A DNA stretch of 64,000 bases, from positions 32,001-96,000 of the IMG/VR virus record IMGVR_UViG_3300025400_000011; one strand, given 5' to 3'. This document shows, piece after piece, positions 1-28,800 of this stretch (position 1 is its first letter; the number at the start of each line of letters is the position of its first letter). The position numbers were made by a program, and so were the translations under genes. This DNA is from a virus. Below the pieces are notes generated by a model. It was not told where the DNA came from. It did not search any database and worked only from the letters and a program-made list of their open reading frames with translations.

Positions 1-878
1 CTTACCCATCAGCTGTAAACGGTAACGGTGTCATTGACGAAACAACTGGTGATTTATGGGTATACGCTAACGGTACTTGGACTGATGTCGGTCAAGTAAA
101 GGGTGATAAAGGTGATTCTGGTACCTCAGGTTGGTCTGGTATATCAGGTTTTTCTGGTCAATCAGGCTTCTCTGGTTTCTCAGGCTTTAGCGGTGACCCT
201 GTTAACATTTCTAGTCAGTTAATAATGGCTACTAACTCGTTTAGCGCTGGTCAAGTACTAAGACTAAACTACGGAGACGGTTTATGGTACCTAGCTCAAG
301 CTAATAACGTTGTAAATGCTGAAGCAACTGGTGTAGTAGAATATGCTACTTCGAGTCTATTCTATATTGTATATAACGGATTAATAACTTTCAACACTTC
401 TGATATTAATAACTTAGTACCAGGGGATTGCTTATTCCTTTCACCAACAGTTGCTGGTGCTACAACTTCAGATAATGTAAGTGCATTAAACACAGTTTCA
501 AAACCAATAATGCGCGCTGTTTCAAGCAACGTTGCAGTAGTTGTTAATGAACGTGGCATATTAAACACTAGCGATAATGTTCTTAACTCTTATGTTCCGG
601 CAACATATGTAACAAATGCCTACTATACAGCTACACCTAGTGATTACTTTATCGGAGTAAATGTAGGGGGTCAAGCAACAGTTACACTACCGGTTGGTAC
701 ACCAGGTAAGACATACACCATTAAGGATATGTCAGGAAATGCTAACACAACAACAAATCTTATTACTATATCCGCAACAAACCCAGATCTGATTGATGGA
801 AGCACGTTTGATGTGATCGATACACCTTACGAAACAGTTTCTGTAATATATATTGGAGGTATGTGGAATTTAGTTTAA
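1..878 (+). CDS. 5'-truncated virion fibre protein with short G-X-S tract and two C-terminal modules shared with the next gene
   Basis: Frame is open from position 3 (YPSAVNGNGVIDETTGDLWVYANGTWTDVGQVKGDKGDSGTSGWSG...) into the tracked ORF at 225. C-terminal NSFSAGQV.RL / KP.MRA..S..AVVVNERG / DY.IG.NV modules are paralogous to 934..4152. Confidence 0.8.
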   Translation, partial: YPSAVNGNGVIDETTGDLWVYANGTWTDVGQVKGDKGDSGTSGWSGISGFSGQSGFSGFSGFSGDPVNISSQLIMATNSFSAGQVLRLNYGDGLWYLAQANNVVNAEATGVVEYATSSLFYIVYNGLITFNTSDINNLVPGDCLFLSPTVAGATTSDNVSALNTVSKPIMRAVSSNVAVVVNERGILNTSDNVLNSYVPATYVTNAYYTATPSDYFIGVNVGGQATVTLPVGTPGKTYTIKDMSGNANTTTNLITISATNPDLIDGSTFDVIDTPYETVSVIYIGGMWNLV

Positions 879-905
879 AAACACTCTCAAAACCTGCTAA
901 AGAAA

Positions 906-913
906 TATAAATA
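906..913 (+). promoter_or_regulatory. T4-like late promoter TATAAATA
   Basis: Exact T4 late consensus, 20 nt before ATG 934. Confidence 0.65.
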
Positions 914-933
914 TTAACAAATAACAAACTACT

Positions 934-3900
934 ATGGCAAATTCATTCGTCTACTCAGCAATTAGAGGTGCATCCGGCTTTTCCGGCTTCAGCGGGCAAA
1001 TAGGTACGTCCGGTTGGTCAGGTATATCTGGTTATTCTGGTGCATCAGGTGCCATAGGCCAATCAGGCTACTCCGGTATCTCTGGTTATTCAGGCTTTAG
1101 TGGCTTCTCAGGTTGGTCTGGTATAAGCGGCTATAGTGGTTTTACAGGTATTTCAGGTTTTAGTGGTATCAGTGGTTATAGTGGTTTCACTGGTATTTCT
1201 GGTTATACTGGTATTAGTGGTTACACTGGTATAAGCGGCTTTAGCGGCTTTACAGGTATTAGTGGTTGGTCTGGTATTTCCGGTTACTCTGGCTTCACAG
1301 GTATTTCTGGTTATTCAGGCTTTACTGGTATTTCAGGTTATTCAGGCTTTACAGGTATTAGCGGTTTTAGTGGTATTAGTGGCTACTCCGGCTTTTCAGG
1401 CTTTACTGGTATCTCAGGTTTTACAGGTATCAGTGGTTATTCCGGCTTTACCGGTATTTCAGGTTATTCTGGCTTCTCTGGTATAAGCGGTTTTACAGGT
1501 ATTTCTGGTTGGTCTGGTTATTCTGGTATTAGCGGTTTTAGCGGCTTTACCGGTATTTCAGGTTATTCTGGCTTCTCAGGCTTTACCGGTATTTCAGGTT
1601 GGTCAGGTATTTCTGGCTACTCCGGCTTTACAGGCATAAGCGGTTACAGCGGCTTTACAGGTATTTCAGGTTATACTGGTATATCTGGTTTTACAGGTAT
1701 TTCTGGTTTCAGCGGTATTAGCGGTTGGTCAGGTATTTCTGGTTATTCCGGCTTCACTGGTATAAGCGGTTATTCCGGCTTCACTGGTATTTCAGGTTAT
1801 ACCGGTATTAGCGGTTATAGTGGTATTAGCGGCTATAGTGGTTTTACAGGTATTTCAGGTTATACTGGTATATCTGGTTACAGCGGCTTTACAGGCTTTA
1901 GCGGTTATTCTGGCTTTACTGGTATTAGCGGTTACTCTGGCTTTACTGGTATTTCAGGTTATACAGGTTTCTCTGGTATCTCTGGTGGTACCGGTGCATC
2001 CATTTACGGTAGAACGTACTACCTACAAGAAGTAACAAGTGATCAAAACCCAACAGTATTTGAAGTAATGTCGTTAGTACCAGGCGGTGGTGGTACAGAT
2101 GTAAACGACGACGTATTAGCTCTTAACTCTACCACAGCAGGTCCAGGTAGCCCAAGCGCTTACGGTTGGTACTTAACACCAATTGGGGAACCAGGCTTAG
2201 TTGAAATTCCAGCTGGTTTGTGGGAATTCGATTTCTATCGTAACGTTTCTGCTAGCGCAGCAAACTTTGTTATTAGCGTATATAGTTACTCAATGGCTAC
2301 AAGCGCTACTAGCGCATTCATCTTAAGTGCTGATTCAGGCCCTGTTACAGATACAGTTTCAACTTTCCAAAAATTAGGTTACGTTACAAGCACGATTACA
2401 AAACTTTCTGCAACAGATCGTATCTTATTACAAGTTGCAGCTTACACAACAAGTACAGCAACAATTAGCGCTTCATACCATTACAATGGTAGTTCGATAT
2501 ATTCCGCTTTACGTACTCCAATCGGTCAAGGTGTTAGTGGTACATCTGGTTATTCCGGTATTGGTACTTCTGGTTACTCTGGTTTTAGCGGTATATCTGG
2601 TTTTACTGGTATCAGTGGTTTCAGCGGTATCAGTGGCTGGTCTGGTATTTCAGGCTACTCCGGCTTTAGCGGTATATCAGGTTATACAGGTATATCAGGT
2701 TATAGCGGTATTAGCGGTTACTCAGGCTTTACTGGTATTTCAGGTTACACTGGTATTAGCGGTTATAGCGGTATTTCAGGCTTTAGCGGCTTTACCGGTA
2801 TTAGCGGTTTTAGCGGTATTAGCGGTTGGTCTGGTATCTCAGGCTACAGCGGCTTTACCGGTATTTCAGGTTATACTGGTATCAGTGGTTTCACAGGTAT
2901 TTCAGGTTATTCTGGTATCAGTGGCTACAGTGGCTTTACAGGTATAAGCGGTTATTCAGGCTTTACCGGTATATCAGGTTATAGCGGCTTCACTGGTATT
3001 TCAGGTTACACAGGTACATCTGGCTACTCTGGTTATAGCGGCTTTACAGGTATAAGCGGTTATTCAGGCTTTACTGGTATATCAGGTTACTCCGGCTTTA
3101 GCGGCTTTACAGGTATAAGCGGTTACTCAGGCTTTACTGGTATATCAGGTTTCTCTGGTATCAGTGGCTATAGTGGCTTTACCGGTGTATCTGGTTTCAC
3201 TGGTATATCAGGTTTCTCTGGTATTAGTGGTTGGTCTGGTATTTCAGGCTACTCTGGCTTTACAGGTATTAGCGGTTACTCTGGTTTCAGTGGCTTCACT
3301 GGTATTAGTGGTTACTCAGGCTTTACCGGTATATCTGGTTACTCTGGTATTAGTGGCTATAGTGGCTTTACTGGTATATCGGGTTATACAGGTATAAGTG
3401 GTTTCAGTGGCTTTACCGGTATTAGCGGTTTCAGTGGTATTTCAGGCTTCAGTGGTTACACTGGTATGTCTGGTGCTACAACAAATATTTCAAGTCAAGT
3501 CATTACATACACGAACAGCTTTAGCGCTGGTCAAGTAGTACGTCTTGACAACGGTTCAAGCGGTTGGTTCTTAGCTCAAGCAGACAATGTAACAGATGCA
3601 GAAGCAACAGGTGTTGTCGCATCAGCTTCAGCTACAGGCTTCACCATTATATACATGGGCTTGATTACAAATCTTGCAAGCTTAACTCCTGGTGAATGTT
3701 ACTTCTTATCACCAACAGTTGCAGGTGCTGTAACAACAGTTGCTCCAAGTGCTTTTGGTACAGTATCGAAACCGGTCATGAGAGCTATTACATCTTCAAC
3801 AGCTGTAGTAGTAAATGAACGTGGTTATCTAAACTCTGATAACGCGTTGTTACTATATCCAAACGTACAAGGTGTACGTCTAGTAACAAGCAACCCATAC

Positions 3901-4152
3901 GTTGTACAATCAACTGACGAATATATCGGTATTAACGTTGCTACTCCAACCACTGTTTATCTACCAGCAATCGCAGGTATACAACAGGGCTTGTATGTAA
4001 CTATTAAAGATGAATCTGGTAATGCTAAGACAAACAACATTACATTATCTGGTGCAGGCGTAACCGTTGATGGTCAAGCTACTTACTTGTTAAACTACAA
4101 CTACGAAGCTGTATCATTAATATACAACGGCACTAACTGGTTTATCATATAA
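934..4152 (+). CDS. G-X-S/T repeat (collagen-like) virion fibre protein with inserted globular domain
   Basis: 1072 aa; two long (G-[FYIW]-[ST])n tracts flank a ~175-aa GRTY...RTPIGQG domain; C-terminus is paralogous to the preceding gene. Confidence 0.8.
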   Translation: MANSFVYSAIRGASGFSGFSGQIGTSGWSGISGYSGASGAIGQSGYSGISGYSGFSGFSGWSGISGYSGFTGISGFSGISGYSGFTGISGYTGISGYTGISGFSGFTGISGWSGISGYSGFTGISGYSGFTGISGYSGFTGISGFSGISGYSGFSGFTGISGFTGISGYSGFTGISGYSGFSGISGFTGISGWSGYSGISGFSGFTGISGYSGFSGFTGISGWSGISGYSGFTGISGYSGFTGISGYTGISGFTGISGFSGISGWSGISGYSGFTGISGYSGFTGISGYTGISGYSGISGYSGFTGISGYTGISGYSGFTGFSGYSGFTGISGYSGFTGISGYTGFSGISGGTGASIYGRTYYLQEVTSDQNPTVFEVMSLVPGGGGTDVNDDVLALNSTTAGPGSPSAYGWYLTPIGEPGLVEIPAGLWEFDFYRNVSASAANFVISVYSYSMATSATSAFILSADSGPVTDTVSTFQKLGYVTSTITKLSATDRILLQVAAYTTSTATISASYHYNGSSIYSALRTPIGQGVSGTSGYSGIGTSGYSGFSGISGFTGISGFSGISGWSGISGYSGFSGISGYTGISGYSGISGYSGFTGISGYTGISGYSGISGFSGFTGISGFSGISGWSGISGYSGFTGISGYTGISGFTGISGYSGISGYSGFTGISGYSGFTGISGYSGFTGISGYTGTSGYSGYSGFTGISGYSGFTGISGYSGFSGFTGISGYSGFTGISGFSGISGYSGFTGVSGFTGISGFSGISGWSGISGYSGFTGISGYSGFSGFTGISGYSGFTGISGYSGISGYSGFTGISGYTGISGFSGFTGISGFSGISGFSGYTGMSGATTNISSQVITYTNSFSAGQVVRLDNGSSGWFLAQADNVTDAEATGVVASASATGFTIIYMGLITNLASLTPGECYFLSPTVAGAVTTVAPSAFGTVSKPVMRAITSSTAVVVNERGYLNSDNALLLYPNVQGVRLVTSNPYVVQSTDEYIGINVATPTTVYLPAIAGIQQGLYVTIKDESGNAKTNNITLSGAGVTVDGQATYLLNYNYEAVSLIYNGTNWFII
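967..3475 (+). repeat. Degenerate 9-bp-period coding repeat (Gly-X-Ser/Thr), interrupted at about 2000-2530
   Basis: GGY-NNN-TCN/AGY/ACN periodicity is directly visible. Confidence 0.95.
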
Positions 4153-4156
4153 AGTG

Positions 4157-4164
4157 TATAAATA
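4157..4164 (+). promoter_or_regulatory. T4-like late promoter TATAAATA
   Basis: Exact consensus, 18 nt before ATG 4183. Confidence 0.65.
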
Positions 4165-4182
4165 TTATTGCTTAAATGAATC

Positions 4183-7100
4183 ATGAGCAATACATTTGTA
4201 TACACAGCAATTAAAGGACAATCCGGTTTTTCAGGCGCGCAAGGTGTAGCAGGAGCTACAGGCACTTCTGGTTATTCCGGTATCTCTGGTTATACAGGTA
4301 TTAGCGGCTTCACTGGTATATCCGGTTATAGCGGCTTTACCGGCACTTCCGGTTACTCTGGTTTCACAGGTATATCTGGTTTTACAGGTATATCTGGCTA
4401 TACTGGCTTTTCAGGTATATCCGGTTATACAGGTATATCTGGCTATTCTGGTATCTCAGGCTTTAGCGGTTTTACTGGTATTAGCGGTTATAGTGGTTTT
4501 TCTGGCTTTACAGGCATCTCTGGCTATACCGGTGTAAGTGGTTACAGCGGTTTTAGTGGAACAAGCGGCTACTCTGGTATTTCAGGTTATTCAGGCTTTA
4601 CAGGTATATCTGGTTATACAGGTATATCTGGTTATTCAGGCTATTCAGGCTTTAGCGGTTTTTCAGGTATTAGCGGTTATTCCGGCTTTAGCGGTTTTAC
4701 AGGTATCAGTGGTTATTCAGGCTTTACTGGTATATCAGGCTTCACTGGTATAAGCGGTTACTCTGGTTTTTCTAGCTTTAGTGGTTATAGTGGTTTCTCT
4801 GGTGTATCTGGTCCAACAGGTGCTTCTATATACGGTAGAACATATTTTTTTAATGAAACCAATAGTGACCAACCTGCTTATGAAACAATTGCATTGACAC
4901 CGGGTGGTGGTGGGGTTACTCAATATGATGATGTTGCTTATGTTAACAGTACTAATAGTAATGCTTATAGTGCACAATCAATAGGTGGTTATTTAACTCC
5001 TATTGGAGAGCCAGGTATTGCAGAAATACCAGCTGGTATTTGGGACATTGAATGGTTTTATCAAGTAGGCGCGGGTGCAACAACACCAAACCCTTCTGCA
5101 GGCTTTGTATTTAGTTTGTATAGCTATTCAATGGCTACAAGCTCAACTAGTGCATTTATTTTAAGTGCAGATACAGGAGCAGTGTTTACAACAGCTGCAA
5201 CACCAACATATACTAAGTTTAGTTATGTAACAAGTAATATTACTTTACTTTCAGCTACAGATAGAATACTTGTTAATGTAGGAATGTATTCACCGAATAC
5301 ACAAACAGTATCGGCTACATTTATATATAATGGTGCAACTAATTATTCTGTAATTAGAACTCCAATCGGTCAAGGTGTATCTGGTGCTTCTGGTTATTCT
5401 GGTGTTGGTACTTCAGGTTATTCAGGCTTTACTGGTATATCTGGTTTTACAGGTATTTCTGGCTATAGCGGTTTTTCTGGTGCTAAAGGCTCTACAGGTA
5501 CATCTGGTTATAGCGGCTTTACAGGTATTTCTGGTTATACAGGTATATCAGGTTATAGCGGTATAAGCGGTTACTCAGGCTTTACAGGTATAAGCGGTTA
5601 TTCAGGCTTTAGCGGTTTTACTGGTATATCTGGTTACTCAGGTATTTCTGGTTGGTCTGGCTTCACTGGTATATCAGGCTTTACTGGTATTTCAGGCTAT
5701 AGTGGTTTTAGTGGTATAAGCGGTTACACCGGTATATCTGGCTATAGTGGTATCAGTGGTTTCTCAGGTTTTACAGGCATAAGTGGTTATACCGGTATAT
5801 CAGGCTATTCTGGTATTAGTGGTTTTTCAGGCTTTACAGGTATATCAGGCTTTACAGGTATTTCTGGTTACTCTGGTTTTACAGGTGTATCAGGCTATAG
5901 CGGCTTTACTGGTATTTCCGGTTATACTGGTATATCAGGTTATTCTGGCTTCTCTGGTTCTGCTGGGGTTTCCGGTTTTAGTGGTATATCTGGTTTTTCT
6001 GGTACAAGCGGTTTAAATGCTACTAATGTAAACGTAACATACAGCAACTCTTTTAGTCCAGGCAATGTTATATACAAAACTTCTGGTGGTTATGCTTTAG
6101 CACAAGCAAATGCAGCTTCTACATCAGATATTATTGGTGTTGTAATAAGTGCAACAGGTACATCATTTCAGTATGTAGCTAACGGCTACACTTCAGGCTT
6201 TACCGGTATTGTAGACGCTGCACAATACTATCTTTCAGATACTACAGCAGGTCTAATGACCACAACACCTCCTTCAGCTATTGGTTCTATTATTAAACCA
6301 GTAATGATTGGTATAGGTACTACAGCTGGTCTAATAGTTGAGTATCCTGGTTCACAGATTCAGGCTGCTAATGCAAATTCTGGTTATTCTGGTTTTTCCG
6401 GTGCAGGACAATCTGGTTACAGTGGTTTTTCTGGCTTAAAAGGCTCAACAGGCGCTCAAGGTTCTACAGGTAGTACTGGTACATCTGGTTATTCGGGCTT
6501 TAGCGGAACTAATGGTACAAATGGTACTAACGGTACTTCTGGTTATTCAGGCTTTAGTGGTACAAATGGTACTAACGGTACTTCTGGTTACTCTGGTTTT
6601 ACAGGCATATCTGGTTATAGCGGTTTTTCAGGCTTTTCTGGAGCATTTGCAGGTAGTACAGGTACTACAAATTATGTAGCTAAGTTTACAGGTACGAATT
6701 CATTAGGCACAGGCTTAATATACGACAATGGTACTAATGTTGGTGTTGGTCTAACAGCTCCTAATACAAGCTTACAAATAAATAACAATGGTACTTACGC
6801 TACGACCGGTAATATGAATACCGGTATAGTTGTAGGTAATAACACTAGCGGAGCAGCTCTCAACTCTGGTGCATATGATTCAGGTACTACTACGACTTCT
6901 TATGGCTGGTTTAATACTGGTTATGCCAATAATGCTAATATAGGCGTTTCTATGATTTTTGCTGCAGGTGGTACCGAAAAAATGCGTATTACTACTGGTG
7001 GTAATGTCGGTATCGGTACGACTGCACCTAGCGGTACACTTACAGTTGCTGGTTCTTTGTCAGCTAAAACAGCAAGTATAGCTCAAAACTTTACAGTGGA

Positions 7101-7452
7101 TGTTAACGGTAACGCTACTGCTGTATCGTTTACTTCAACATCTTCTAAAGTTGGTAAGACAAATATCAGACCATTATCATCTTTTATTGTAGATCCATTA
7201 GCAACTACTCAATTATTAAATGCAGTCGTGTATGATAGTTTAATTGATGTATCCGCTACTAACGAAATTGGTTTTATTGCAGAAGATGTATTACCAGTAC
7301 TACCAGCTGTAGTTTCCACAGAAGGAGATGTAGTTGTTGGTATTGATTATAGCCGTATAACAGCTCTTCTTACTGAAGCAGTTAAAGCACAACAAGTACA
7401 AATAAACAACCTAAATATATTAATAACGCAATTAAGTGCAAGATTAAGTTAA
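4183..7452 (+). CDS. G-X-S repeat tail fibre with C-terminal intramolecular chaperone (peptidase S74-like)
   Basis: 1089 aa; G-X-S tracts, GRTY domain, GNVGIGTTAP beta-repeats, then TSSKVGKTNI...IGFIAEDV...IDYSRITALLTEAVK plus coiled coil. Confidence 0.85.
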   Translation: MSNTFVYTAIKGQSGFSGAQGVAGATGTSGYSGISGYTGISGFTGISGYSGFTGTSGYSGFTGISGFTGISGYTGFSGISGYTGISGYSGISGFSGFTGISGYSGFSGFTGISGYTGVSGYSGFSGTSGYSGISGYSGFTGISGYTGISGYSGYSGFSGFSGISGYSGFSGFTGISGYSGFTGISGFTGISGYSGFSSFSGYSGFSGVSGPTGASIYGRTYFFNETNSDQPAYETIALTPGGGGVTQYDDVAYVNSTNSNAYSAQSIGGYLTPIGEPGIAEIPAGIWDIEWFYQVGAGATTPNPSAGFVFSLYSYSMATSSTSAFILSADTGAVFTTAATPTYTKFSYVTSNITLLSATDRILVNVGMYSPNTQTVSATFIYNGATNYSVIRTPIGQGVSGASGYSGVGTSGYSGFTGISGFTGISGYSGFSGAKGSTGTSGYSGFTGISGYTGISGYSGISGYSGFTGISGYSGFSGFTGISGYSGISGWSGFTGISGFTGISGYSGFSGISGYTGISGYSGISGFSGFTGISGYTGISGYSGISGFSGFTGISGFTGISGYSGFTGVSGYSGFTGISGYTGISGYSGFSGSAGVSGFSGISGFSGTSGLNATNVNVTYSNSFSPGNVIYKTSGGYALAQANAASTSDIIGVVISATGTSFQYVANGYTSGFTGIVDAAQYYLSDTTAGLMTTTPPSAIGSIIKPVMIGIGTTAGLIVEYPGSQIQAANANSGYSGFSGAGQSGYSGFSGLKGSTGAQGSTGSTGTSGYSGFSGTNGTNGTNGTSGYSGFSGTNGTNGTSGYSGFTGISGYSGFSGFSGAFAGSTGTTNYVAKFTGTNSLGTGLIYDNGTNVGVGLTAPNTSLQINNNGTYATTGNMNTGIVVGNNTSGAALNSGAYDSGTTTTSYGWFNTGYANNANIGVSMIFAAGGTEKMRITTGGNVGIGTTAPSGTLTVAGSLSAKTASIAQNFTVDVNGNATAVSFTSTSSKVGKTNIRPLSSFIVDPLATTQLLNAVVYDSLIDVSATNEIGFIAEDVLPVLPAVVSTEGDVVVGIDYSRITALLTEAVKAQQVQINNLNILITQLSARLS

Positions 7453-7461
7453 ATATAGAAT

Positions 7462-8493
7462 ATGGCTACTCCATTTACATATAGTATACAAGGTGTTTCT
7501 GGTTTTTCTGGTACTCAAGGTGCAACCGGTACGTCGGGATATTCTGGTTTTAGCGGACCTCAAGGGCCACAAGGATTTAGTGGAGCTGCAGGTACTTCTG
7601 GTTATAGTGGTATATCTGGTGCACAAGGTGCACAAGGAACTAATGGAACGATTGGGCAGAACGGTGCACAAGGTGCACAAGGCGCAACAGGTGCTCAAGG
7701 TGCAGCAGGTACGTCAGGATATTCTGGTTTTAGTGGAGCTAAAGGATCTACTGGAGCTCAAGGATCTACTGGTGCTCAAGGCTCAACAGGTGCTCAAGGC
7801 TCAACAGGTGCTCAAGGCACTTCAGGCGCTCAAGGCGCAACCGGTACTTCTGGTTTTTCAGGCCAGCTTGGCGCTAACACTACTGTGTATGTACAAAGTG
7901 GTTCAGTAAGTGGTGTACCTACAGCCGCGGGTAATGGTAATCTTTGGTGGAACACAGATACTGGTGCCTTAAACATTTGGATATCGTCTTCTAGTTCTTG
8001 GGTAGTTGCAGTGCCATATGTTGATCCTTCTACTATATTTAAAACTTCTGGTGGTAACATAACTGGTAACGTTGGTATATCTGGAGCGTTAAACGTAACA
8101 GGTGCTATTACAGCTACTAGTAGTATTACTGCTAATTATTCTGATAAACGACTTAAAGATATTAAAGGCAATATTTTAAATGCGTTGTCAAAAGTTTTAT
8201 TACTTAATGGTGTGAACTACACTGCTAATGAAACTGCTCAACGTTACGGTTATTCATCTGAAACTCCTGAAGTAGGTTTAATAGCTCAGGAAGTACAGGT
8301 AGTTTTACCTGAAGTTATTAAGTTAGCACCGTTCGATACTGTAACCAATGAAGATGGTTCAACATATTCTAAGAGCGGTGAAAACTATATAACTATACAA
8401 TATGAAAGAATGATTCCTTTACTTGTTGAGGCCATAAAAGAACAGCAAGCTCAGATAGAGGAACTTAAAGCACTCATTAAAGCAAAGGCCTAA
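7462..8493 (+). CDS. Collagen-like (GAQ/GST) short fibre with S74 chaperone domain
   Basis: GAQ/GST triplets, LWWNTDTGALNIW module, canonical SDKRLK...GLIAQEV...YERMIPLLVEAIKE. Confidence 0.88.
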   Translation: MATPFTYSIQGVSGFSGTQGATGTSGYSGFSGPQGPQGFSGAAGTSGYSGISGAQGAQGTNGTIGQNGAQGAQGATGAQGAAGTSGYSGFSGAKGSTGAQGSTGAQGSTGAQGSTGAQGTSGAQGATGTSGFSGQLGANTTVYVQSGSVSGVPTAAGNGNLWWNTDTGALNIWISSSSSWVVAVPYVDPSTIFKTSGGNITGNVGISGALNVTGAITATSSITANYSDKRLKDIKGNILNALSKVLLLNGVNYTANETAQRYGYSSETPEVGLIAQEVQVVLPEVIKLAPFDTVTNEDGSTYSKSGENYITIQYERMIPLLVEAIKEQQAQIEELKALIKAKA

Positions 8494-8496
8494 AGT

Positions 8497-9558
8497 ATGG
8501 CAAACCAGCTAAGTTTTCCAACTTCACCTTCAAGTGCACAAAGGTACATTTCTCCTATAGGGTGGGTGTACACTTATGACGGTTATACCTGGAATACAAC
8601 AGGTAGGTTAGGTATGGCTGGGTTTACAGCTGAAAACTCATTTTTATATCGTACCGTGTATACTCGTGGTTATGTACATTGCGGTTATCAAGGTGGTAGT
8701 CCTTGGCGTAATACTAATAGAACTATACATTTAACCGATACAACCACTAACTTAGGTGATATGATGGATAATGGTGCATCATACATTGACGGTGGGTTTA
8801 GTGATTATAACACGTATGTGTTTAATGACTCTGGTGCAGTTAATGGTACTTCTTCTTACACGTCATCAATGAGTATGACGACTGAATCTTTAAGAACTCA
8901 TAATAGTAATAGAGATTTAAAACAGTCTCGTGCAAACTGTAAAGCGTTAATGAACGCAGGACTCACTTCAATATATATTACTGGTGGTAACTCTTCTAAT
9001 ACAGATAAATTTTGCACTATTACAGATACAATGTTGTCATTAAGTCTTATTAGCGGTGGTAACTCAGGTCAAACAGCAGGTGGTCTTAGCGGTTTTTGGG
9101 GTCAGTACTATGGCTGGGTTAGTAGCGATAACTCTGGCACTAGTTGTTTTGCTTGGAGTACTGAAACTTATATAACAGTCATCAACTACAGTTTAGATAC
9201 AGACGGTCAACCGAAAGGTTTATCTAGTAAATGGGGATTTGGATACAACTCAACCGGTTCATATGCTGGTTCGTCAACATTATATAAGTTTAACGATACT
9301 AACGGTACTTCAGTATCAAGTTTTAGTCGTCCTGAATCTTGCGGAGAAGAAAATATGCAAGTAGGGCAAGATTGGGGATATGCCCTTGGTTCCTATAACG
9401 GTGGTAACCAAACAAATAACACTCAAAAGATATACTACACCACAGATACCTGTTCAGGTATGGGTTCCACTACTCAACCTAAAGGCCACGGTGGAATGTC
9501 ATCCGGTAGTTGCGGTTCTGGTAGTGTAACTTTATTAGGTGGTTCATTAGGTGGTTAA
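8497..9558 (+). CDS. Gly/Ser/Thr-rich virion-associated protein (possible beta-propeller), paralogue A
   Basis: N-terminal LSFP...YTYDGYTW module; collinear with 9571..10641. Confidence 0.65.
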   Translation: MANQLSFPTSPSSAQRYISPIGWVYTYDGYTWNTTGRLGMAGFTAENSFLYRTVYTRGYVHCGYQGGSPWRNTNRTIHLTDTTTNLGDMMDNGASYIDGGFSDYNTYVFNDSGAVNGTSSYTSSMSMTTESLRTHNSNRDLKQSRANCKALMNAGLTSIYITGGNSSNTDKFCTITDTMLSLSLISGGNSGQTAGGLSGFWGQYYGWVSSDNSGTSCFAWSTETYITVINYSLDTDGQPKGLSSKWGFGYNSTGSYAGSSTLYKFNDTNGTSVSSFSRPESCGEENMQVGQDWGYALGSYNGGNQTNNTQKIYYTTDTCSGMGSTTQPKGHGGMSSGSCGSGSVTLLGGSLGG

Positions 9559-9570
9559 ATAAATATTTTT

Positions 9571-10641: not shown

Positions 10642-10654
10642 CTATTTAACGAAT

Positions 10655-11287
10655 ATGAATTATTATCTTACTAAATTTTTCCGATACATACCTAATATTG
10701 ATGGTATGACCGTTATAACAGGTATTGATAATTTTAATATTGTCAGCCTTGCAACCGATACTGCTATTGCAACATTAAGTGCTTACGAAGCACATCCTTT
10801 TGAAGGCATACCAAAGACAATACCTATGGTAGAGTTGACTGAAGTTGAAGCACTGTCTGCTCATAAGTTTTATGCTGAAACTCGTGGTTACCGTAAAGCA
10901 TATTCCGATCTAGAAGGATTAGAACCGGATGCTGATGAGTTAGCAAAAGGTAGCAGAAAAACAAAAATTTACTTGACTGATGATATGACAGCAGCTACTA
11001 TATCACTAATGAAGAAAGCTCATAAGTTACACATTGATCAAGAAATGGAAGATAGACGTTTAGGTTTACCTAATCTTGATAGCACTGAAAGACCTGCTTA
11101 TAACGCAGATAAACACGCCGAATTGTTAACACAGGCAGATAGTTTATCTTCTATTGATGATCACGTTGAAGCACGAGAAACGGTACTTGGTCACGAAATG
11201 ACAAAGGATCTTGCTAGTAGAAAAGGACTTTGGGATGATACTAGAAACGCTAGAAAAGAAAAAGTAAAATTTGGATACCAATTCTAA
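10655..11287 (+). CDS. Hypothetical phage protein (fibre-cassette accessory)
   Basis: ORF; ATG 10655 preferred over the tracked 10616 start, which overlaps the previous gene. Confidence 0.7.
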   Translation: MNYYLTKFFRYIPNIDGMTVITGIDNFNIVSLATDTAIATLSAYEAHPFEGIPKTIPMVELTEVEALSAHKFYAETRGYRKAYSDLEGLEPDADELAKGSRKTKIYLTDDMTAATISLMKKAHKLHIDQEMEDRRLGLPNLDSTERPAYNADKHAELLTQADSLSSIDDHVEARETVLGHEMTKDLASRKGLWDDTRNARKEKVKFGYQF

Positions 11288-11288
11288 T

Positions 11289-13620: not shown

Positions 13621-13634
13621 TATAAAATATAGCT

Positions 13635-16115: not shown

Positions 16116-16143
16116 AAACGTATTTCTGCTGTAAGTAATAATA

Positions 16144-17178: not shown

Positions 17179-17179
17179 C

Positions 17180-20100: not shown

Positions 20101-23100
20101 AAGCGGTTATAGCGGTACTTCAGGTTTCTCAGGCTTCACAGGTATAAGCGGTTATTCCGGTCAATCAGGCTTTAGTGGTTTCACTGGTATATCTGGTTAC
20201 TCTGGTACTTCAGGCTTTAGTGGTATATCAGGCTTCTCTGGTTACACCGGTATTTCAGGCTTCTCAGGTATTAGCGGTTGGTCAGGCTATTCTGGCTTTA
20301 CGGGTTTATCAGGCTTTAGTGGTTACTCCGGTTTATCAGGCTTTACAGGTATTTCAGGTTACTCAGGCTTTAGTGGTCAAATAGGCTACTCTGGTCAATC
20401 AGGCTTTAGTGGTTTTACTGGTGTAAGCGGGTTCAGTGGTACATCTGGTATTTCTGGTTATTCTGGCTTTACAGGCATTTCCGGCTTTAGCGGTATTTCA
20501 GGCTTTAGCGGTATAAGCGGTTTTAGCGGTATTTCTGGTTACTCTGGTTTATCAGGGTTCTCAGGTTACACAGGTATAAGTGGTTTCTCAGGCTTTACAG
20601 GCGCTTCTGGTTTCTCTGGTATATCAGGCTGGTCTGGCTATAGCGGCTTTAGCGGTTTTTCAGGCTTTAGTAGCTACTCCGGATTTAGCGGCTTTAGTGG
20701 TTTCTCAAGCTATTCCGGTTTCTCAGGGTTTAGCGGTTTTTCAAGCTTCTCTGGTTTCTCTGGTTTTAGTAGCTTCTCTGGTTTCTCAGGCTTCAGTAGT
20801 TATTCCGGTTATACAGGTGTTTCTGGTTACTCTGGTTATTCTGGTTTTACTGGCTTCTCAGGCTTTACTGGTTGGTCTGGTTTTAGCGGTTATCAAGGCT
20901 ACTCTGGTTTTAGTGGCTTCTCTGGTTTTAGTGGAGCAGGTATAACAAGTACTGCTACTACAAGTTATATACCTAAGATGTCAAGCTCGACATCTGTAGC
21001 TAATAGTTTAGTATATGACAACGGTACTAATGTAGGTATCAATACTACTAGCCCAGCACATACATTACATGTCCAGGGGGATATATATTCTTCTGGTGCT
21101 ATTATCGGTAGTATCAACAATACACTTAAAACAACTAATGTCGGTGCTACTAGTTCAATATATGTAAGATCAGACGGTAGCACAGGCGCATTTAATGATT
21201 CTAATACTGCTTTCTATGTAGATAATATCGGTAACTTATCTATTTTCAATCAGCTTTACTATAACTCTTCTACACAAAAGTTCGTCATTGCTGGTACATT
21301 GCAAGCAGCTTCAATAGGTGCAACAAGTGCAATATATATTGCTGCAACAGGTGTTACACCTTCATTTAGTGCATGCAATACACCTTTCTATGCTGATAAT
21401 ACTGGTAACTTCTCGTTAGGTAATAAGTTTGCTTGGAACAGTAAGACAAACGTTTTAAATGTTGGTGGTACAATAAATGCTGCTAATATAGGTGCAACAA
21501 GTGCTATATACATTGCTGGTGCAACAGTAACACCTTCATTTAGTGCTTCTAATACACCTTTTTGGGTAGATAGTTCTGGTAGATTATCTCTAGGTAGCAA
21601 ACTTACCTGGGACGGTAATGGTACGTTAAATGTAGGTGGTACTATTAAGACTACAACAGCAGACGCTACAAGTGCAATATATGTAAGAGCAGATGGTGGT
21701 GTTGGTGCATTTAACGACTCTAATACAGCTTTCTGGGTAGATAATACTGGTAACTTATCTATTTTTAATAAACTTTATTACAATGCTTCTACTCAAAAGT
21801 TCTGGATCGGTGGGACATTGCAGGCTTCTACAGTAGGTTCTACTAGTGCAATATATGTACGTACAGATGGTAGTGCTGGTGCATATAACAACTCAAGCAC
21901 ACCATTCTATGTAGATAATACAGGTCAATTTTCTCTTGGTAATAATGTAACTTGGAGCGGTGGTGCATTAACAGTAAATGGTACTGTTACTACTGGTGCA
22001 TTAACAGCTACAGGTGGTAAAATATCAAACTGGAATATTAATACCAATAGTTTTACATCAACTAATGGTGATATAACTCTTAATAGTAGTTCTACCCCTT
22101 ATATAGGCGTTAATACAACCACATTTGGTAGTGCTGGTATATTCTTAGGTAAGAGTGGTACTAACTACGTATTCTATGCAGGTAACGGTAGTAATCAAGC
22201 TTTAAAATGGGACGGTAGCGCATTAACAGTATCCGGTACTATTGGTGCAACTGCTGGTAATATAGGTGGTTGGGGTATAGGTAGTACATCTCTTACATCA
22301 ACTAATATAACTATTGATAGTTCTGCCGGGTCAATAACAAGTACAGATGGTGCTGGTAGTTATGTATATCTTACTTCAAACTTTGTAAGCGGTTATGGTG
22401 GTGCTGTAACTAATAGCGCATCTTACAAGTTATATGCTTTAGGTAATGGTGCATATTTAAATATTTCAAATGCCTCTTTTAGTGTTGGTGGTGGGGTAGC
22501 TAGTAGCTCATTAGCTACGTGGTCGGTTACAGGTGGTGGTGGTACAGTTTCAATGACCCCCGGCAGATTAGATGCAAGTTCTGCAGTTTCTGGTTTTAGT
22601 GGTACTTTCACTCGTCTAGTAGTTGGTAATAACGGTTTTGATGTTACAGGTGGTGGTACAATATCTGGAGATGTAGGACTAGGTACAGGTGCCAAGATAT
22701 ACCTACATGCAGCTTCAGGTTGGGTAGGAGTTTCAGGCGGTATTGCATTCGGAGATGGTACTACAATGAACACTGCTGGTGGTTCTACTGGACCACAAGG
22801 TGCTTCTGGTACTTCAGGGTGGTCTGGTTTTAGCGGTATAAATGGCTCTAACGGTGCTTCTGGTACTTCAGGGTGGTCTGGTTTCTCTGGACAAAAAGGT
22901 GCAACAGGACCGCAAGGATTAAGAGGCCCAACAGGACCACAAGGGCAAAGAGGTCCTACAGGTTCTCAAGGCTTTAGCGGTATTTCAGGTTGGTCTGGCG
23001 CAAAAGGTGCTCAAGGTTCACCTGGTTCAACTTCTTATAACCAATCTCTCAACACATACAACTCTGTAACATTTGCAGGTCTAACAGTTTCTGATGGTAC

Positions 23101-23737
23101 AGCTAGTGATGTAGTAGCTACATTTAGTGGTTTAGTAAACCTTCAATCAGGTACAGTTGGACCACACGTAATATATACTGCAGGAGCTGCAGGTACCACT
23201 GGTAATGAATACGGTTTAGGTTTATCCGATTCTTCGTATGGTAATCCTGCAAATACTTGGTTAAAAGGTAACGGTGATGCTTCCTTTGGTGGTGCTGTTT
23301 CTAAAGGCTCTGGTTCATTTAAAATTAACCATCCGTTACCCTCGTTAAGTGCTACAAACTATTTAGTACATTCATTTATTGAAGGTCCAAGAGTAGATCT
23401 TATATATAGAGGTACAGCAGCACTTAGTGCAGGTCAAGCTGTTTTAAACTTAGATGAAACAGTAGGTATGACAGAAGGTACGTTTGTAGCTTTATGTAGA
23501 GAGGTACAAGTATTTGTTACAAATCAAACAGATTGGTCTGGTGTGCGTGGTTCAGTTACTGATAATATTTTAACCATAACATGTCAAGATCCTTCTGCTA
23601 CGTCTACTGTTAACTGGATGGTAATAGGTGAACGTCATGACCCACACATTATTAGTACAAGCTGGACTGATGCAAGCGGTAAACCTATATTAGAACCAGT
23701 TATTCCACCACCAATACCATTATCTGCTATATTATAA
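17180..23737 (+). CDS. Giant G-X-S repeat long tail fibre
   Basis: 2185 aa; roughly 1050 aa of G-X-S triplets around a GRTY domain, five ~57-aa beta repeats, a short GPT/GPQ collagen, C-terminal KGSGSFKINHP...LVHSFIEGP domain. Confidence 0.85.
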   Translation: MSLTTVNQLSLIPAAAGVSGRSGFSGFSGFPGAQGAPGGASGYSGQSGTSGFSGFTGFSGFSGLNGTVAYSGTSGFSGFSGFSGYSGATGFSGFSSFSGFSGFSSFSGYSGYTGQSGFSGISGFSGISGFSGISGYSGMSGFTGISGFSGAPGAAAASGYSGFSGYSGISGYSGFSSFSGYSGFSSFSGYSGFSSFSGFSGYSGFSSFSGFSGFSSFSGFSGTSGYSGQSGFSGFTGLSGYSGTSGFSGNSGTSGYSGYTGLQGYSGLSGYSGQSGFSGISGWSGDSGISGYSGFSGQSGALGISGFSGYSGQSGYSGTSGYVGISGYSGFSGQSGWSGYSGISGTSGYSGQSGFSGPSGYSGFTGISGYSGFSGQVGTTGQSGYSGFSGQSGYSGQSGFSGISGFSGYTGTSGTSGYSGISGYSGFTGISGTSGYSGSVGTSGTSGYSGTSGYSGLSGYSGTSGYSGTSGYSGTIGTSGYSGISGYSGFTGISGYSGFTGTSGFTGISGYSGISGFSGFTGISGYSGQSGYSGTSGTVGTSGYSGYSGLSGASGYSGLSGFSGISGYTGISGHSGFSSYSGYSGQSGFTGISGFSGWSGPTGGSVYGRTYFFNETNSDQNPAVFEQLTLQPGGISIEDDQVTITSAAGISAIGWYLTPPGEPGLVYIESGLWDIEFYRYVTGGSAGFIFSIYTFSMATSATSTFILSADSGLVSDTVSTYQKIGAVTSSITSLSSTDRILLQVAAYTNSVTPVTAAYQYNGSSVYSVVRTPIGQGVAGQSGYSGYSGLGYSGYSGQSGYSGFTGFSGFTGISGFTGTSGYSGFTGISGASGYSGTVGISGTSGYSGFTGISGYSGISGFSGFTGISGTSGYSGISGYSGISGYSGYSGASGYSGTSGFSGISGFTGISGYSGFTGISGYSGTSGYSGTSGYSGYSGQSGFSGISGYSGTSGFSGISGYSGFTGQSGTSGYSGLSGYSGTSGFSGFTGISGYSGQSGFSGFTGISGYSGTSGFSGISGFSGYTGISGFSGISGWSGYSGFTGLSGFSGYSGLSGFTGISGYSGFSGQIGYSGQSGFSGFTGVSGFSGTSGISGYSGFTGISGFSGISGFSGISGFSGISGYSGLSGFSGYTGISGFSGFTGASGFSGISGWSGYSGFSGFSGFSSYSGFSGFSGFSSYSGFSGFSGFSSFSGFSGFSSFSGFSGFSSYSGYTGVSGYSGYSGFTGFSGFTGWSGFSGYQGYSGFSGFSGFSGAGITSTATTSYIPKMSSSTSVANSLVYDNGTNVGINTTSPAHTLHVQGDIYSSGAIIGSINNTLKTTNVGATSSIYVRSDGSTGAFNDSNTAFYVDNIGNLSIFNQLYYNSSTQKFVIAGTLQAASIGATSAIYIAATGVTPSFSACNTPFYADNTGNFSLGNKFAWNSKTNVLNVGGTINAANIGATSAIYIAGATVTPSFSASNTPFWVDSSGRLSLGSKLTWDGNGTLNVGGTIKTTTADATSAIYVRADGGVGAFNDSNTAFWVDNTGNLSIFNKLYYNASTQKFWIGGTLQASTVGSTSAIYVRTDGSAGAYNNSSTPFYVDNTGQFSLGNNVTWSGGALTVNGTVTTGALTATGGKISNWNINTNSFTSTNGDITLNSSSTPYIGVNTTTFGSAGIFLGKSGTNYVFYAGNGSNQALKWDGSALTVSGTIGATAGNIGGWGIGSTSLTSTNITIDSSAGSITSTDGAGSYVYLTSNFVSGYGGAVTNSASYKLYALGNGAYLNISNASFSVGGGVASSSLATWSVTGGGGTVSMTPGRLDASSAVSGFSGTFTRLVVGNNGFDVTGGGTISGDVGLGTGAKIYLHAASGWVGVSGGIAFGDGTTMNTAGGSTGPQGASGTSGWSGFSGINGSNGASGTSGWSGFSGQKGATGPQGLRGPTGPQGQRGPTGSQGFSGISGWSGAKGAQGSPGSTSYNQSLNTYNSVTFAGLTVSDGTASDVVATFSGLVNLQSGTVGPHVIYTAGAAGTTGNEYGLGLSDSSYGNPANTWLKGNGDASFGGAVSKGSGSFKINHPLPSLSATNYLVHSFIEGPRVDLIYRGTAALSAGQAVLNLDETVGMTEGTFVALCREVQVFVTNQTDWSGVRGSVTDNILTITCQDPSATSTVNWMVIGERHDPHIISTSWTDASGKPILEPVIPPPIPLSAIL
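17228..20940 (+). repeat. Degenerate 9-bp-period coding repeat (Gly-X-Ser/Thr), interrupted at about 18995-19507
   Basis: Triplet periodicity directly visible. Confidence 0.95.
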
Positions 23738-23740
23738 TCA

Positions 23741-25303: not shown

Positions 25304-25800
25304 TAACTAACTATACATTTACAACTTCAACAAGTAGTGCAAAACTATATACCCCTACCATTATTGTTTTTAAACCAAGCAATATATCATTAACAGGTAA
25401 CCAGTTTTTAAGCAAAATGGTGTATCAGTTACCAGACGGGGTTATAACTAAAGTAAACACATTTGTACCTAATGGTTACGGTAATGATGATTGTAGATCG
25501 GATTTTGTATACACCGTACCTAACGTTACTACTACTTCAGTTAGCGGTTACACTACAGCTGTTATTAGTATATCTGCCTTTATAGGTCCAGGTAACTACT
25601 TTAATCCTTCTACATATACATTAAGTTTAACAGGTATACCCCCAAAGTTTACTCGCAATCCTTTAGCTTCTGCTGAAGCATATGTATTTGATGAGGTTCA
25701 TTTAGTTAAAATGAAATCCTGGGGTCCAGATAATAATCAAATACTTGCTTTAGAAGGTAAAAATCCAAACTATTTACTGCTGAATTATAATGGATTGTAA
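25300..25800 (+). CDS. Hypothetical structural protein
   Basis: ATGA overlap with the previous gene; Thr-rich. Confidence 0.6.
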   Translation: MITNYTFTTSTSSAKLYTPTIIVFKPSNISLTGNQFLSKMVYQLPDGVITKVNTFVPNGYGNDDCRSDFVYTVPNVTTTSVSGYTTAVISISAFIGPGNYFNPSTYTLSLTGIPPKFTRNPLASAEAYVFDEVHLVKMKSWGPDNNQILALEGKNPNYLLLNYNGL

Positions 25801-25828
25801 CATACATAACAACTAAATATTACTACCG

Positions 25829-28800
25829 ATGCCACTTAAAATTACAGATTTACCGCAAGTACCAGCCGGCACAATATCCCAAAACATTTCTATTCCTGTT
25901 TCCCAAAGTGAAACAGATCCAAAGACTTATAAAATGTCTTTAGCTCAGACCGTTGCTTGGTTACAGACCCAGGGCATTGGTGCAGGTGGTACCGGGCCAC
26001 GTGGCCCTACAGGTCCTATTGGCCCAACAGGTCCTATTGGCCCAACAGGTGGTATTGGACCAACAGGCCCACAGGGTATTCCTGGTTCATCAGGTTATTC
26101 TGGGTTTGGTGGTAACTCAGGCTTTTCTGGTTTTATTGGTTCATCAGGTTTCTCAGGCTTTCAAGGGGATTCAGGGTTTTCAGGTTTCCATGGTTCATCA
26201 GGTTATTCTGGTGTAAGTGGTCCTTCAGGTTTTTCTGGTTCTGCTGGTTCAAATACCGGTTTACCTGGTCCTGGTCTAGTATATACCGGTTATTATAGAG
26301 GTAATAACTATACATATTATAACTCTAACGATCGTAAAGACGTGGTCAGTTATTCTGGTGGTGGTGGTTTAGCTTATTATATCGCTAATAGTGAAACTTT
26401 AAGTAGTACTGGTTATACCGGCTACACAGGATGGCCAGCACCTGGTACAACAAGTGACTGGGCTTCATTCCAAGAAAACTTTCAAAGTGTAGCTACAGAC
26501 TTATTATTAACTAATGACGTAGCAGTAGAAAAGGTTATTACATTAGGTACAGTTGGTAACCTTTCTGCAGGTATTATACGTTCAGTAAATACCGATTGGG
26601 TAGGTACTGAAAATAGTAAAGGTTTTTGGTTAGGTAACGACGTTGATGGTTATCCAAAGTTTTTCATTGGTGATTATTCTCCGGGCGGTAGTTACCTAAT
26701 ATATGACGGTTCCCCTATAGACGGTTTTACAAATGGTACTATCATATTATCTGGTACTATATTAGCAGATCAAGGTCGTATCGGTGGTGTGGGTATTGCT
26801 AAAGGCCAGCTATATACTGGTAACCCTGGTACAGCTGGCTCTATTACAACTCCGTTCTATGTTAACGGTACCTCAGATGATGGCATGACTGACCGTACTT
26901 ATGCAGCAATGGGTAATGCTCTTAAGTTTTACCGACACAACGGTATTAATTATTTTAATCTCTCTGGTGGTATAACAGCCACTTATGGTTCTATAGGCGG
27001 GGTAGGTATTGCACTAGATAGAATTTATACTGGTAATCCTGAAACAGCTGGTTCCATTACAACCCCGTTCTATATAAATGGTAGTGCTGATCCAGGTGGT
27101 AATACAAATCGTACCTATATGACTATGGGAGATACGTTTAAGTATTACAGAGTAGCTGGTGATTCATCTAATAGTTATACCCCTATCAACTATATGTGGT
27201 TGTCTGGTGGTATTACTGCTACGTACGGCTCTATAGGCGGGGTAGGCATTGATACTGATCACATTTATACAGGTCGCCCTGATACTGCTGGAACAATAAC
27301 AACACCTCTCTTTATTAACGGTAACAATTCTGCAGTAGACGGTTCTAATACTGGTCAAGCTATAATGTACTTGGGAGATTCTTTTAAATACTATAAACAA
27401 GCTGGTGTTTCTTCTCCTACTTATAACTTACTATTAGGTAGTACAGGTTTACAAGCTGATTACACTTTGAGTTCTACAGGAGATTACCTCTGGTGGAATG
27501 GTAGTACTTTAAAATTAAAAGGTAGTATTGAAGTTACAGGAGACTCTAACTTTGCTACGACAGGTCAAGTACAAGCAGCTTCAGCAGCTGCATACTCACA
27601 ATCAATCTCATATGCAGATAAAATTGCAAACGGCACTTATCCAGGTAGTACATTTATTTCACAAAACTCTATCATATCACCGATTATCGCTGGTGTAGAT
27701 GGTTATTTTAACAGCTACTTTAAAGTAGGTTCTGGTGGTATAGTGTTAGACGGTAATAATAAACGTATGTATATCGGCAACGGTAACTACGGTAACACTG
27801 ATACAGGGTTTTATGCAAGTTACTCTGGTTGGTTCTCATTAGCTGATAAACTTACATATAACCCTTCTACAGGGCTAGCTATTACTGGTGCTATTACAGT
27901 ACAACCAGGTGGTAATGCGGCTACAGTTGCTAATGTAACAGATGCTTATAATAATGCTTCTGGTGTTGCTGATGCTGTAGCAAGAGGTAACTACACAGGT
28001 GCAGGTACTTCATTTATTAGCGGTAAGTCTATATTCTCTCCTTATATTGCAGGTGCAAGTGGTTATATTGGTGGTACCTTCACAGTAGGTCAAGCTCCTA
28101 ATCACATTTTATTTGACGGTATTAATAAAAAGATGTATATCGGTAATGGTAACTATGCTAATGGAGATACACCTTTCTATGCTGATGGTACTGGTCAGTT
28201 CTCCTTAGGTGCAAGGTTTACTTGGGATACATCTAGTAACTTAACAGTGGGTAACTATATTGGTAATAAATACCTACAATATAACTACGGTAGCAATACA
28301 CTAATACTTAAAGGTGCAGAGTCAGCTGATGGTATTACTATTACATCAAATCAGGGCATGAGGTATGTAAACGATAATGGGGTATTTACTATTACTGGTG
28401 GTTCAGCAAACGGTGTAAATCATGGTGCACAAATCGACTTTGTTGGTACTGGTGGTGCTGGTGCAGGTAGTTACGGTTTATTAAGCTTAAATGCTGGCTG
28501 GCCAGATTCTAATACCAGTGACGGTCGTATACGTTTTGGTGTAGGTAATGCAGGCACTAACGGTTATGGCGAAGGTTTAAACTATGAAGCATTTACTATA
28601 TGGAAAGACGGTTTAGTAGAAGTTGGTAGAGATGGTAGTTTAGCAAATAGCGGTAATTTACAAGTAGACAACGATATACATGTACATGGTTATATATATG
28701 CTACTAAGAGTGCACAGTTCTATCAAAACGTTGCTGTGAATGGTCAAGTAGCTGTTTATAACAACGCAGATTATACTATACAAACCGGTACAGGAAATCT

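Follow-up and report, generated by a model that had tools for sequence, protein, structure and literature searches.

Seven paralogous genes with aromatic Gly-X-Y tracts, probable collagen-type fibres, in a divergent T4-superfamily myovirus

What fold is adopted by a protein with Gly at every third residue, a bulky aromatic or Ile next to it, Ser or Thr after that, and almost no Pro or charge? The question is raised by a stretch of viral DNA from IMG/VR record IMGVR_UViG_3300025400_000011. This stretch of 64,000 nucleotides, hereafter the window, comprises bases 32001-96000 of one 108,882-bp contig, which is a partial genome against the ~170-250 kb of T4-like phages. Seven plus-strand open reading frames (ORFs) of 341-2185 codons, here called genes A to G, carry tracts, defined as runs of at least six Gly-X-Y triplets. 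A sequence-only reading of the window had proposed a family of at least seven such genes. We find seven, all in the same orientation, with 1073 triplets between them. We consider it probable (about 0.65) that they encode paralogous, late-expressed, trimeric collagen-type virion fibres of a divergent T4-superfamily myovirus.

We pooled the 1073 triplets (3219 residues). Position X is Phe in 27%, Tyr in 23%, Ile in 20% and Trp in 2.4% of triplets, or one of these four in 72%. Position Y is Ser in 72% and Thr in 17%, together 89%. Pro is found at 2.9% of X positions and at 0.6% of Y positions. Charged residues account for about 1.6% of X and Y combined, so that Pro and charge are each below 2% of that combined total. 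The six commonest triplets are GIS, GYS, GFS, GFT, GTS and GYT. Gly makes up 33% of tract residues and occurs at X or Y in fewer than 1% of triplets. Uninterrupted runs span 6-125 triplets (up to 375 residues) and turn-like breaks are absent. The tracts had been described as uncharged and nearly Pro-free over hundreds of residues. Gene B bears this out, as its 651 tract residues include neither Pro nor any charged residue.

The periodicity is strict. In gene B, Gly occupies 115 and 102 consecutive third positions. In gene F, the triplet register is held across 564 residues despite 10 in-frame Gly to Ser/Ala substitutions. Hence, a chance origin is excluded. The DNA repeat copies are only 60-80% alike, and Ser is encoded by both codon families (TCN 540, AGY 257). 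Recent slippage is therefore also excluded, and selection has acted on the protein. Triplets with Ile at X and Thr at Y are essentially absent, and Ile triplets never stand back to back, both here and among 11,397 IMG/VR triplets. We also considered Thr-Gly-Ile coupling as a structural rule. In this genome it is enriched (105 observed vs 37.5 expected), but the bias is reversed in the wider IMG/VR set (18 observed vs 294 expected). The rule was rejected in favour of repeat ancestry. The 9-residue GYS-GFT-GIS superrepeat, with its Thr-Gly-Ile coupling, is particular to this lineage.

Each gene joins tracts to globular domains. Gene A (1523 amino acids (aa), genome 28307-32878, equivalent to window -3693..878) has 741 tract residues, and the window holds its last 291 codons. 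It comprises six Gly-X-Y segments, two jelly-roll knobs, three small domains of ~50 aa and a C-terminal two-domain module shared with B. Gene B (1072 aa, 934..4152) begins with an 11-aa N-terminal peptide. Two collagen arms, residues 12-356 (115 triplets) and 544-849 (102 triplets), flank a knob at ~357-532, and the two-domain module occupies 850-1072. In gene C (1089 aa, 4183..7452) two arms of 68 triplets flank the same knob as in B. A beta domain (613-741), a third tract (742-822), a stalk and a Peptidase_S74 domain (992-1044) follow. Genes D and E are shorter. Gene D (343 aa, 7462..8493) has 43 triplets that mix GAQ, GST and GPQ with GFS and GYS, then a stalk and Peptidase_S74 at 227-286. 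Gene E (341 aa, 14843..15868) has 36 triplets that mix GAQ, GPQ and GFQ with GYS, GFT and GIS, and Peptidase_S74 at 244-297.

Gene F (2185 aa, 17180..23737) is the longest, with 1029 tract residues. Its arms span residues 42-605 (188 triplets, containing the 10 Gly to Ser/Ala substitutions) and, beyond the knob, 790-1254 (155 triplets, with 5 Gly to Ser). A beta-repeat region of ~600 aa, a mixed GPQ/GWS tract (1868-1951) and a C-terminal domain complete the protein. Gene G (1114 aa, 25829..29173) has 30 triplets (53-142) that grade from GPT/GPI to GFS/GYS and end at about nucleotide 26254. A long beta-repeat shaft and Peptidase_S74 (1017-1073) lie beyond. The family had been placed at 1-26280. 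These bounds cover the tracts, but they clip the start of gene A and stop with the last tract, short of where gene G ends.

Two irregularities of the arms were noted. Two five-member clusters of Gly to Ser changes occur in F, at residues 177-216 (17708-17827) and 1165-1207 (20672-20800). They lie 389-428 residues before and 375-417 residues after the knob, and an 11-residue offset is constant in 4 of the 5 pairs. Separately, a break one residue short, G-Y-S-G-[I/V/L]-G-[T/Y]-S-G, is conserved ~12-15 residues past the jelly-roll knob in B (2521-2565, residues 530-544), C (~5366-5410) and F (~19490-19550). By this Gly-X-Gly break the register is shifted where the second arm begins, and the site may serve as a hinge.

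Do the tracts behave as collagen? All seven proteins pass the curated threshold of Pfam Collagen (PF01391, 27.2 bits). The scores are 337 (A, full length), 316 (B), 236 (C), 71 (D), 64 (E), 471 (F) and 31 (G) bits; the 291-aa fragment of A within the window scores 21.8 bits, below threshold. These matches are carried largely by Gly. Independently of the profile, GAQ, GPQ, GPT and GST triplets share unbroken, in-phase runs with aromatic triplets in the first tract of A, the last tract of F, and in D, E and G. The tracts thus grade into ordinary collagen, as the sequence-only reading had stated. It had also reported that several members end in S74 domains. Peptidase_S74 exceeds its Pfam cut-off (22 bits) in four of the seven: C (23.2), D (41.4), E (25.2) and G (25.8). 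A Ser-x4-Lys pair, a candidate for the catalytic Ser-Lys dyad of endosialidases, stands at the start of all four domains (SSKVGK, SDKRLK, STRLQK and STRKVK, respectively). Known S74 domains trimerise the upstream fibre and then cleave themselves off.

A, B, C and F share a second candidate nucleation domain. The knob that separates their arms is a ~180-aa domain predicted by AlphaFold2 to be a beta-sandwich jelly roll (predicted template-modelling score 0.73), and is presumably trimeric. Foldseek matches it to the C-terminal, galactose-binding-like jelly rolls of cocaine esterase, with a weaker likeness to TNF-family trimers. Further matches are numerous proteins of uncultured Caudovirales annotated as collagen or S74. 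A search of 1.84 billion representatives returned 326 relatives of the knob. Among the best 150 of these 326, 50 have Gly-X-Y tracts, mostly with Pro, Ala or Val at X and Thr or Gln at Y; 2 are aromatic. Hence, in homologous proteins the knob is flanked by classical collagen, and the aromatic tracts occupy the place of ordinary collagen. This comparison of contexts is the best comparative argument that aromatic tracts may form the same structure. Together with the Pfam matches, the S74 domains and the in-phase classical triplets, it lends indirect support to the earlier proposal of trimeric collagen-type fibres.

The most likely arrangement is as follows. Each polypeptide would form a homotrimer, with its Gly-X-Y tracts wound into collagen-type triple helices. 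Gly would be buried on the axis, leaving the X (Phe, Tyr, Ile or Trp) and Y (Ser or Thr) side chains exposed. Register and trimerisation would probably be set by the C-terminal S74 chaperone in C, D, E and G and by the beta-sandwich knobs set between the tracts of A, B, C and F. With a rise of 0.286 nm per residue, the predicted segments measure ~9-160 nm and the predicted shafts ~25 nm in G, 190 nm in B and more than 300 nm (up to ~320 nm) in F. The result would be very thin, long, uncharged rods with a beads-on-a-string architecture. An aromatic stripe and a hydroxyl stripe had been envisaged. This wording is loose, since X and Y alike are exposed in a triple helix, with the two kinds of side chain interleaved around the rod.

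Several observations weigh against a triple helix. On the host-guest scale of Persikov and co-workers from 2000, Phe, Tyr and Trp are reportedly among the least favourable residues in a triple helix, and Ser is said to be poor at Y. A PDB sequence search retrieved no chain of such composition; the matches, made through Gly alone, were animal collagens, the collagen-like fibril chains 8zxl and 9ius, and BclA. Peptidase_S74 was not found by Pfam in A, B or F, whose trimerisation is presumed. Fibrillar collagens have 8-14 aromatic residues per chain (PMC13507419). An uncharged rod in which aromatics fill about half of all X positions might also aggregate. Candidates for stabilisation are length, nucleation by knobs and chaperones, low environmental temperature, inter-chain aromatic and hydroxyl contacts, and glycosylation.

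The same propensities and the same PDB search would suit chains that form no triple helix, either flexible, sticky low-complexity tethers of the [G/S]Y[G/S] type known from phase-separating proteins or cross-beta assemblies. G-Y-S and G-F-S resemble sequences in which aromatic stickers alternate with Gly-Ser spacers. However, disordered sticker-spacer chains need neither an exact Gly period of three over 345 residues nor a register kept across substitutions. Nor would they be expected in phase with classical triplets, in place of classical collagen around a homologous knob, or ahead of the trimer-specific S74. An amphipathic beta strand is incompatible with a period of three, which gives a single Gly face only in a polyproline II (PPII)-type helix. 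We regard both forms of this explanation as very unlikely.

PPII-type helices can also pack as polyglycine II bundles, the alternative offered by the sequence-only reading. Such bundles, found in the snow-flea antifreeze protein and the phage S16 gp38 tip, resemble the tracts in being Gly-rich, with a PPII-type backbone and a period of three. They are about two-thirds Gly or more, and their short helices are joined by turns (bioRxiv 10.1101/2023.11.25.568672). The tracts differ, since Gly is only one-third of residues, X is bulky, and runs continue unbroken to 375 residues without turns. Bundles are accordingly disfavoured. A related possibility is that the arms on either side of a knob fold back as an antiparallel pair of triple helices, zipped by their aromatic surfaces. 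The two arms of C are exactly 68 triplets each, the Gly to Ser clusters of F are nearly mirrored about the knob, and jelly rolls usually have neighbouring N and C termini. Elsewhere the arms are unequal, with 115 vs 102 triplets in B and 188 vs 155 in F. Across 20 homologous contexts, arm lengths on either side of the knob are uncorrelated (for instance 30/288 and 222/108 in A, and 240/279 on the IMG/VR contig L045). The hairpin was rejected as a general model on this ground. We hold fold-back pairs and polyglycine II bundles alike to be extremely improbable, and retain the extended collagen-type triple helix.

What kind of virus encodes these proteins? The genes upstream of the fibre genes specify a tail sheath (phrog_23), the large terminase TerL (phrog_2/5989) and a head closure protein (phrog_679). 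TerL has just 36% identity to the Sinorhizobium phiM12 group, and the sheath ~34% to T4-like phages. Compared by megablast with a phage collection, 14 kb and 25 kb of the window gave zero DNA-level matches. Between fibre genes D and E lies a tract-free cassette of six plus-strand genes (8497..14702; phrog_1417 twice, 1604, 1409, 1458 and 14035). We searched one of the six by tblastn, the phrog_1458 gene at 11986-13620. It has matches in 126 phage records, at up to 44.5% identity, nearly all of them cyanomyoviruses. In the cyanomyovirus P-HM2, the syntenic cassette sits in the tail-fibre/structural region, just ahead of the neck genes; Gly-X-Y tracts were not found in the P-HM2 region examined. 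Low TerL and sheath identity, a cyanomyovirus-type cassette and the lack of DNA-level phage matches place the source, by sequence, as an uncultured, divergent T4-superfamily myovirus. Sheath, TerL and neck genes beside the fibre genes, together with late-promoter boxes, make up a structural module of T4-superfamily type.

The late-promoter boxes bear on expression. A T4-type late-promoter-like box, TATAAATA, lies on the plus strand at 906..913, 26 nucleotides upstream of gene B. A second exact copy (4157-4164, plus strand) precedes gene C. Within 60 nucleotides upstream of gene starts, we observed 9 TAAATA boxes vs 0.54 expected. Five of the seven fibre genes (B, C, D, E and G) have TAAATA late boxes upstream.

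Where on the virion would the fibres sit? The fibre genes adjoin neck and terminase genes and flank a cassette of the cyanomyovirus tail-fibre region. Hence, synteny points to the tail, baseplate or neck. From one of these sites, the fibres would probably serve in adhesion to the host or to surfaces, and specificity would be conferred by C-terminal modules that differ: S74 in four genes, the two-domain module in A and B, and a separate module in F. In B (window 3865-4149) and A (genome 32590-32875), the final ~100 aa show weak Foldseek likeness to tailspike and baseplate domains (mean model confidence, as predicted local distance difference test (pLDDT), 65). The matches include Acinetobacter phage Solidus gp83, the Klebsiella phage KP1 baseplate, the N-terminal part of CBA120 TSP4 and the 602-aa chain of T4 baseplate entry 5iv5. 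Judged from the model, this domain could be a docking module instead of a receptor binder. In a tblastn search with gene B, where the low-complexity filter hides the repeats, the sole match was its C-terminal domain in Salicola phage SCTP-2.

The proteins could instead decorate the capsid as a hair-like coat, as the sequence-only reading had imagined. Seven fibre types are many for one tail, N-terminal peptides of ~10 aa leave scant room for a baseplate-binding domain, and capsid spike and decoration proteins are among the weak structural hits to the C-terminal module. However, a capsid-binding domain is absent, the best matches of the last domain of A and B are the tailspike and baseplate domains (5iv5 602-aa chain, CBA120 TSP4), fibres that end in S74 are typically tail fibres or spikes, and the synteny is with a tail-fibre region. 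We think a capsid coat unlikely, and prefer fibres of the tail, baseplate or neck.

Two small elements recur at other positions. B, C and D start with a common peptide of ~10 aa, M-[AS]-x-x-F-[VT]-Y-[ST]-[AI]-[IQ], immediately before the first triplet: MANSFVYSAI in B (934-966), MSNTFVYTAI in C (4183-4215) and MATPFTYSIQ in D (7462-7494). The same peptide starts P0017, a metagenomic relative of 628 aa, and may be a shared means of docking. In gene A, a domain of ~50 aa (TSVTI[IV]G[ST]VP...G.LWVY..G.W..VGQ[IV]KGD) occurs three times between collagen segments. The copies lie at residues 113-163, 655-710 and 1211-1266 (genome 28643-28795, 30269-30436 and 31937-32104, the last equivalent to window ~-63..104). 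No Pfam family matched this domain.

The repeat DNA also gives rise to ORFs in other frames (111-170 codons; 2435-2947, 7493-7909, 17625-17984 and 20580-20945, plus strand) and on the opposite strand (15172-15507 and 22423-22773, minus strand). These are a consequence of periodic sequence and not genes.

Is this chemistry confined to one virus? A degenerate DNA pattern for seven such triplets was found in at least 119 IMG/VR stretches. Of the 119 loci listed, 111 have tracts with at least 40% Phe, Tyr, Trp or Ile at X, so that there are at least 111 such loci. One ORF reaches 2337 tract residues. Pooled over the 111 loci, X is Tyr in 36%, Ile in 19% and Phe in 17% of triplets, and Y is Ser in 76% and Thr in 14%. 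The sequence-only reading had proposed a pattern search for such triplets in viral proteins. Of 8000 candidates scored in a protein search, 386 were matches, and most of these share the chemistry. In cellular genomes, only short tracts were seen (up to 123 aa). No description emerged from a literature search that covered the motif strings and phage collagens rich in tyrosine or serine. Hence, this composition class is common in environmental phages; collagen-like phage fibres as such are already known. Aromatic Gly-X-Y genes also occur on contigs from giant-virus metagenome-assembled genomes (L007, L016, L017, L028, L040, L059 and L080), and L080 additionally encodes a homologue of the final domain of B. 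These members may be genuine fibres of giant viruses, or the bins may contain contaminating phage sequence.

How do the tracts compare with known collagens? Like the PF01391 collagen-like proteins (Scl1/Scl2, BclA, E. coli prophage EPclA, PRD1 P5 and the 'Bacteriophage collagen' of Smith et al. 1998), A to G place uninterrupted Gly-X-Y beside trimerising domains. Both sets would be surface or tail fibres for which a hydroxyproline system is not required. The composition differs. Viral collagens are rich in Pro at X, in charged residues, and in Gln or Thr at Y, and Phe, Tyr, Trp, His and Cys are absent from prophage collagens (Ghosh et al. 2012, PMC3368898). The sequence-only reading had likewise given Pro, charged pairs or Thr/Gln as the usual basis of bacterial and phage collagens. 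Non-animal collagens described so far are stabilised by Pro at X, by charged pairs, or by Ala, Thr or Gln. The pooled A to G tracts lack such a composition; instead, Phe, Tyr and Trp together fill 52% and Ile 20% of X. The S74 fibres of known phages (K1F endosialidase, T5 L-shaped fibre) share the terminal S74 with C, D, E and G. Their S74 substrates are triple beta-helices or beta-helical stalks, whereas C, D, E and G also have collagen-type tracts upstream.

One isolate, the Methylophilaceae phage P19250A, encodes a protein of this kind, P19250A_0023 (APC43908.1, 1201 aa, gp23). Like A to G, it has hundreds of G-[Y/F/I/W]-S triplets and small globular interruptions, and it shares the ~50-aa domain of gene A ('TS[VI]xI[VI]GSV...W..VG.I.G'). 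Unlike the source of the window, P19250A is a siphovirus of a freshwater methylotroph. Its X positions are more often acidic (GES/GDS), and a cassette of methyltransferase (MT) and glycosyltransferase family 2 (GT2) genes follows the fibre gene (KX815270.1 21390-26600; L123:3564-7169 and L324:111-1701). The fibre gene is annotated as a 'tail length tape-measure protein'. The next two genes, both 'hypothetical', match the MT half of a GT-MT fusion (gp24, E 3e-106) and the second GT2 of the cassette (gp25, E 1e-182).

Similar cassettes adjoin fibre genes in other lineages. In three loci, a Pfam scan of the neighbours identified a GT2-MT fusion directly after the fibre gene and then a second GT2. 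Homologues of the cassette are present in 39-42 of the 119 listed loci, which had been picked by repeat pattern alone. Conversely, among 79 loci fetched via the GT-MT protein, 68 have an aromatic Gly-X-Y ORF in the same orientation, in most cases immediately upstream; these 79 are at least 67% identical in GT-MT and so represent few independent lineages. The wider IMG/VR fibres have the repeat chemistry of A to G, including avoidance of Ile-Thr and of consecutive Ile. They differ in that about a third or more of their loci have the GT2-MT/GT2 cassette, which was not found on the contig studied here. This contig, from a T4-like myovirus, has seven paralogues. Because the cassette adjoins fibre genes in other lineages and in P19250A, O-glycosylation of Y-position Ser/Thr is, on this comparative ground, a serious hypothesis for the class.

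For the fibres described here, the corresponding proposal is that dense O-glycosylation (and methylation) of Ser/Thr at Y would stabilise the same triple helices and mask their aromatic surface. This reading concerns stabilisation and is compatible with the collagen-type fold. It resembles the Thr-glycosylated cuticle collagen of Riftia and BclA, and Thr-glycosylated collagens provide a precedent (Bann et al. 2000, as cited in PMC3368898). Within the window, the region at 43.5-53 kb encodes a UDP-glucose dehydrogenase, a carbamoyltransferase and a methyltransferase, along with two weak GT2-like ORFs. However, these sugar genes lie 16-25 kb downstream of the fibres, and the GT2-like matches, more than 16 kb away, fall below Pfam cut-offs. 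In marine myoviruses, clusters of sugar genes of this kind are generally interpreted as metabolic or as concerned with the host surface. The GT2-MT/GT2 cassette itself was not found on the partial 108.9-kb contig, either by tblastn (E 1e-3) or with profile hidden Markov models built from 68 and 81 cassette sequences (E 1). We consider glycosylation of these seven fibres doubtful. Another type of enzyme was seen on L045. There, a minus-strand region (L045:387-1546) with two 2-oxoglutarate-Fe(II) oxygenase genes (PF13759 and PF13640; prolyl-hydroxylase-like) and no glycosyltransferases lies beyond an aromatic collagen-like gene of 2307 aa. One ORF (L045:1813-2772) separates that gene from the oxygenases, and the tract is almost Pro-free.

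A wider proposal can be made tentatively. Gly-[Phe/Tyr/Ile/Trp]-[Ser/Thr] is possibly a distinct and widespread solution to the triple helix, built without Pro, hydroxyproline or charge pairs. It would be held by length and by aromatic and hydroxyl contacts between chains, and in many lineages also by dedicated O-glycosylation or methylation of Ser/Thr at Y. The rod itself, with its aromatic and hydroxyl or glycan-coated surface, would be a long multivalent adhesin for polysaccharide surfaces as well as a spacer.

The rules of collagen stability derive from animal collagens and a few bacterial ones, in which aromatics are rare and counted as destabilising. Hundreds of phage genes now present tracts of 100-2300 residues that are half aromatic at X and nearly all hydroxyl at Y. 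Since the culturable phage P19250A holds such a gene together with putative modifying enzymes, the question is directly testable. Annotation should be corrected, as such genes are filed as tape-measure or hypothetical proteins. The tracts are also a possible source of Pro-free, hydroxylase-independent recombinant collagen-like materials. For the phages, the data imply that an uncharacterised mode of building or stabilising triple helices is common in nature, or else that another period-3 fold is. The class also has a bearing on the host-range biology of abundant aquatic phages.

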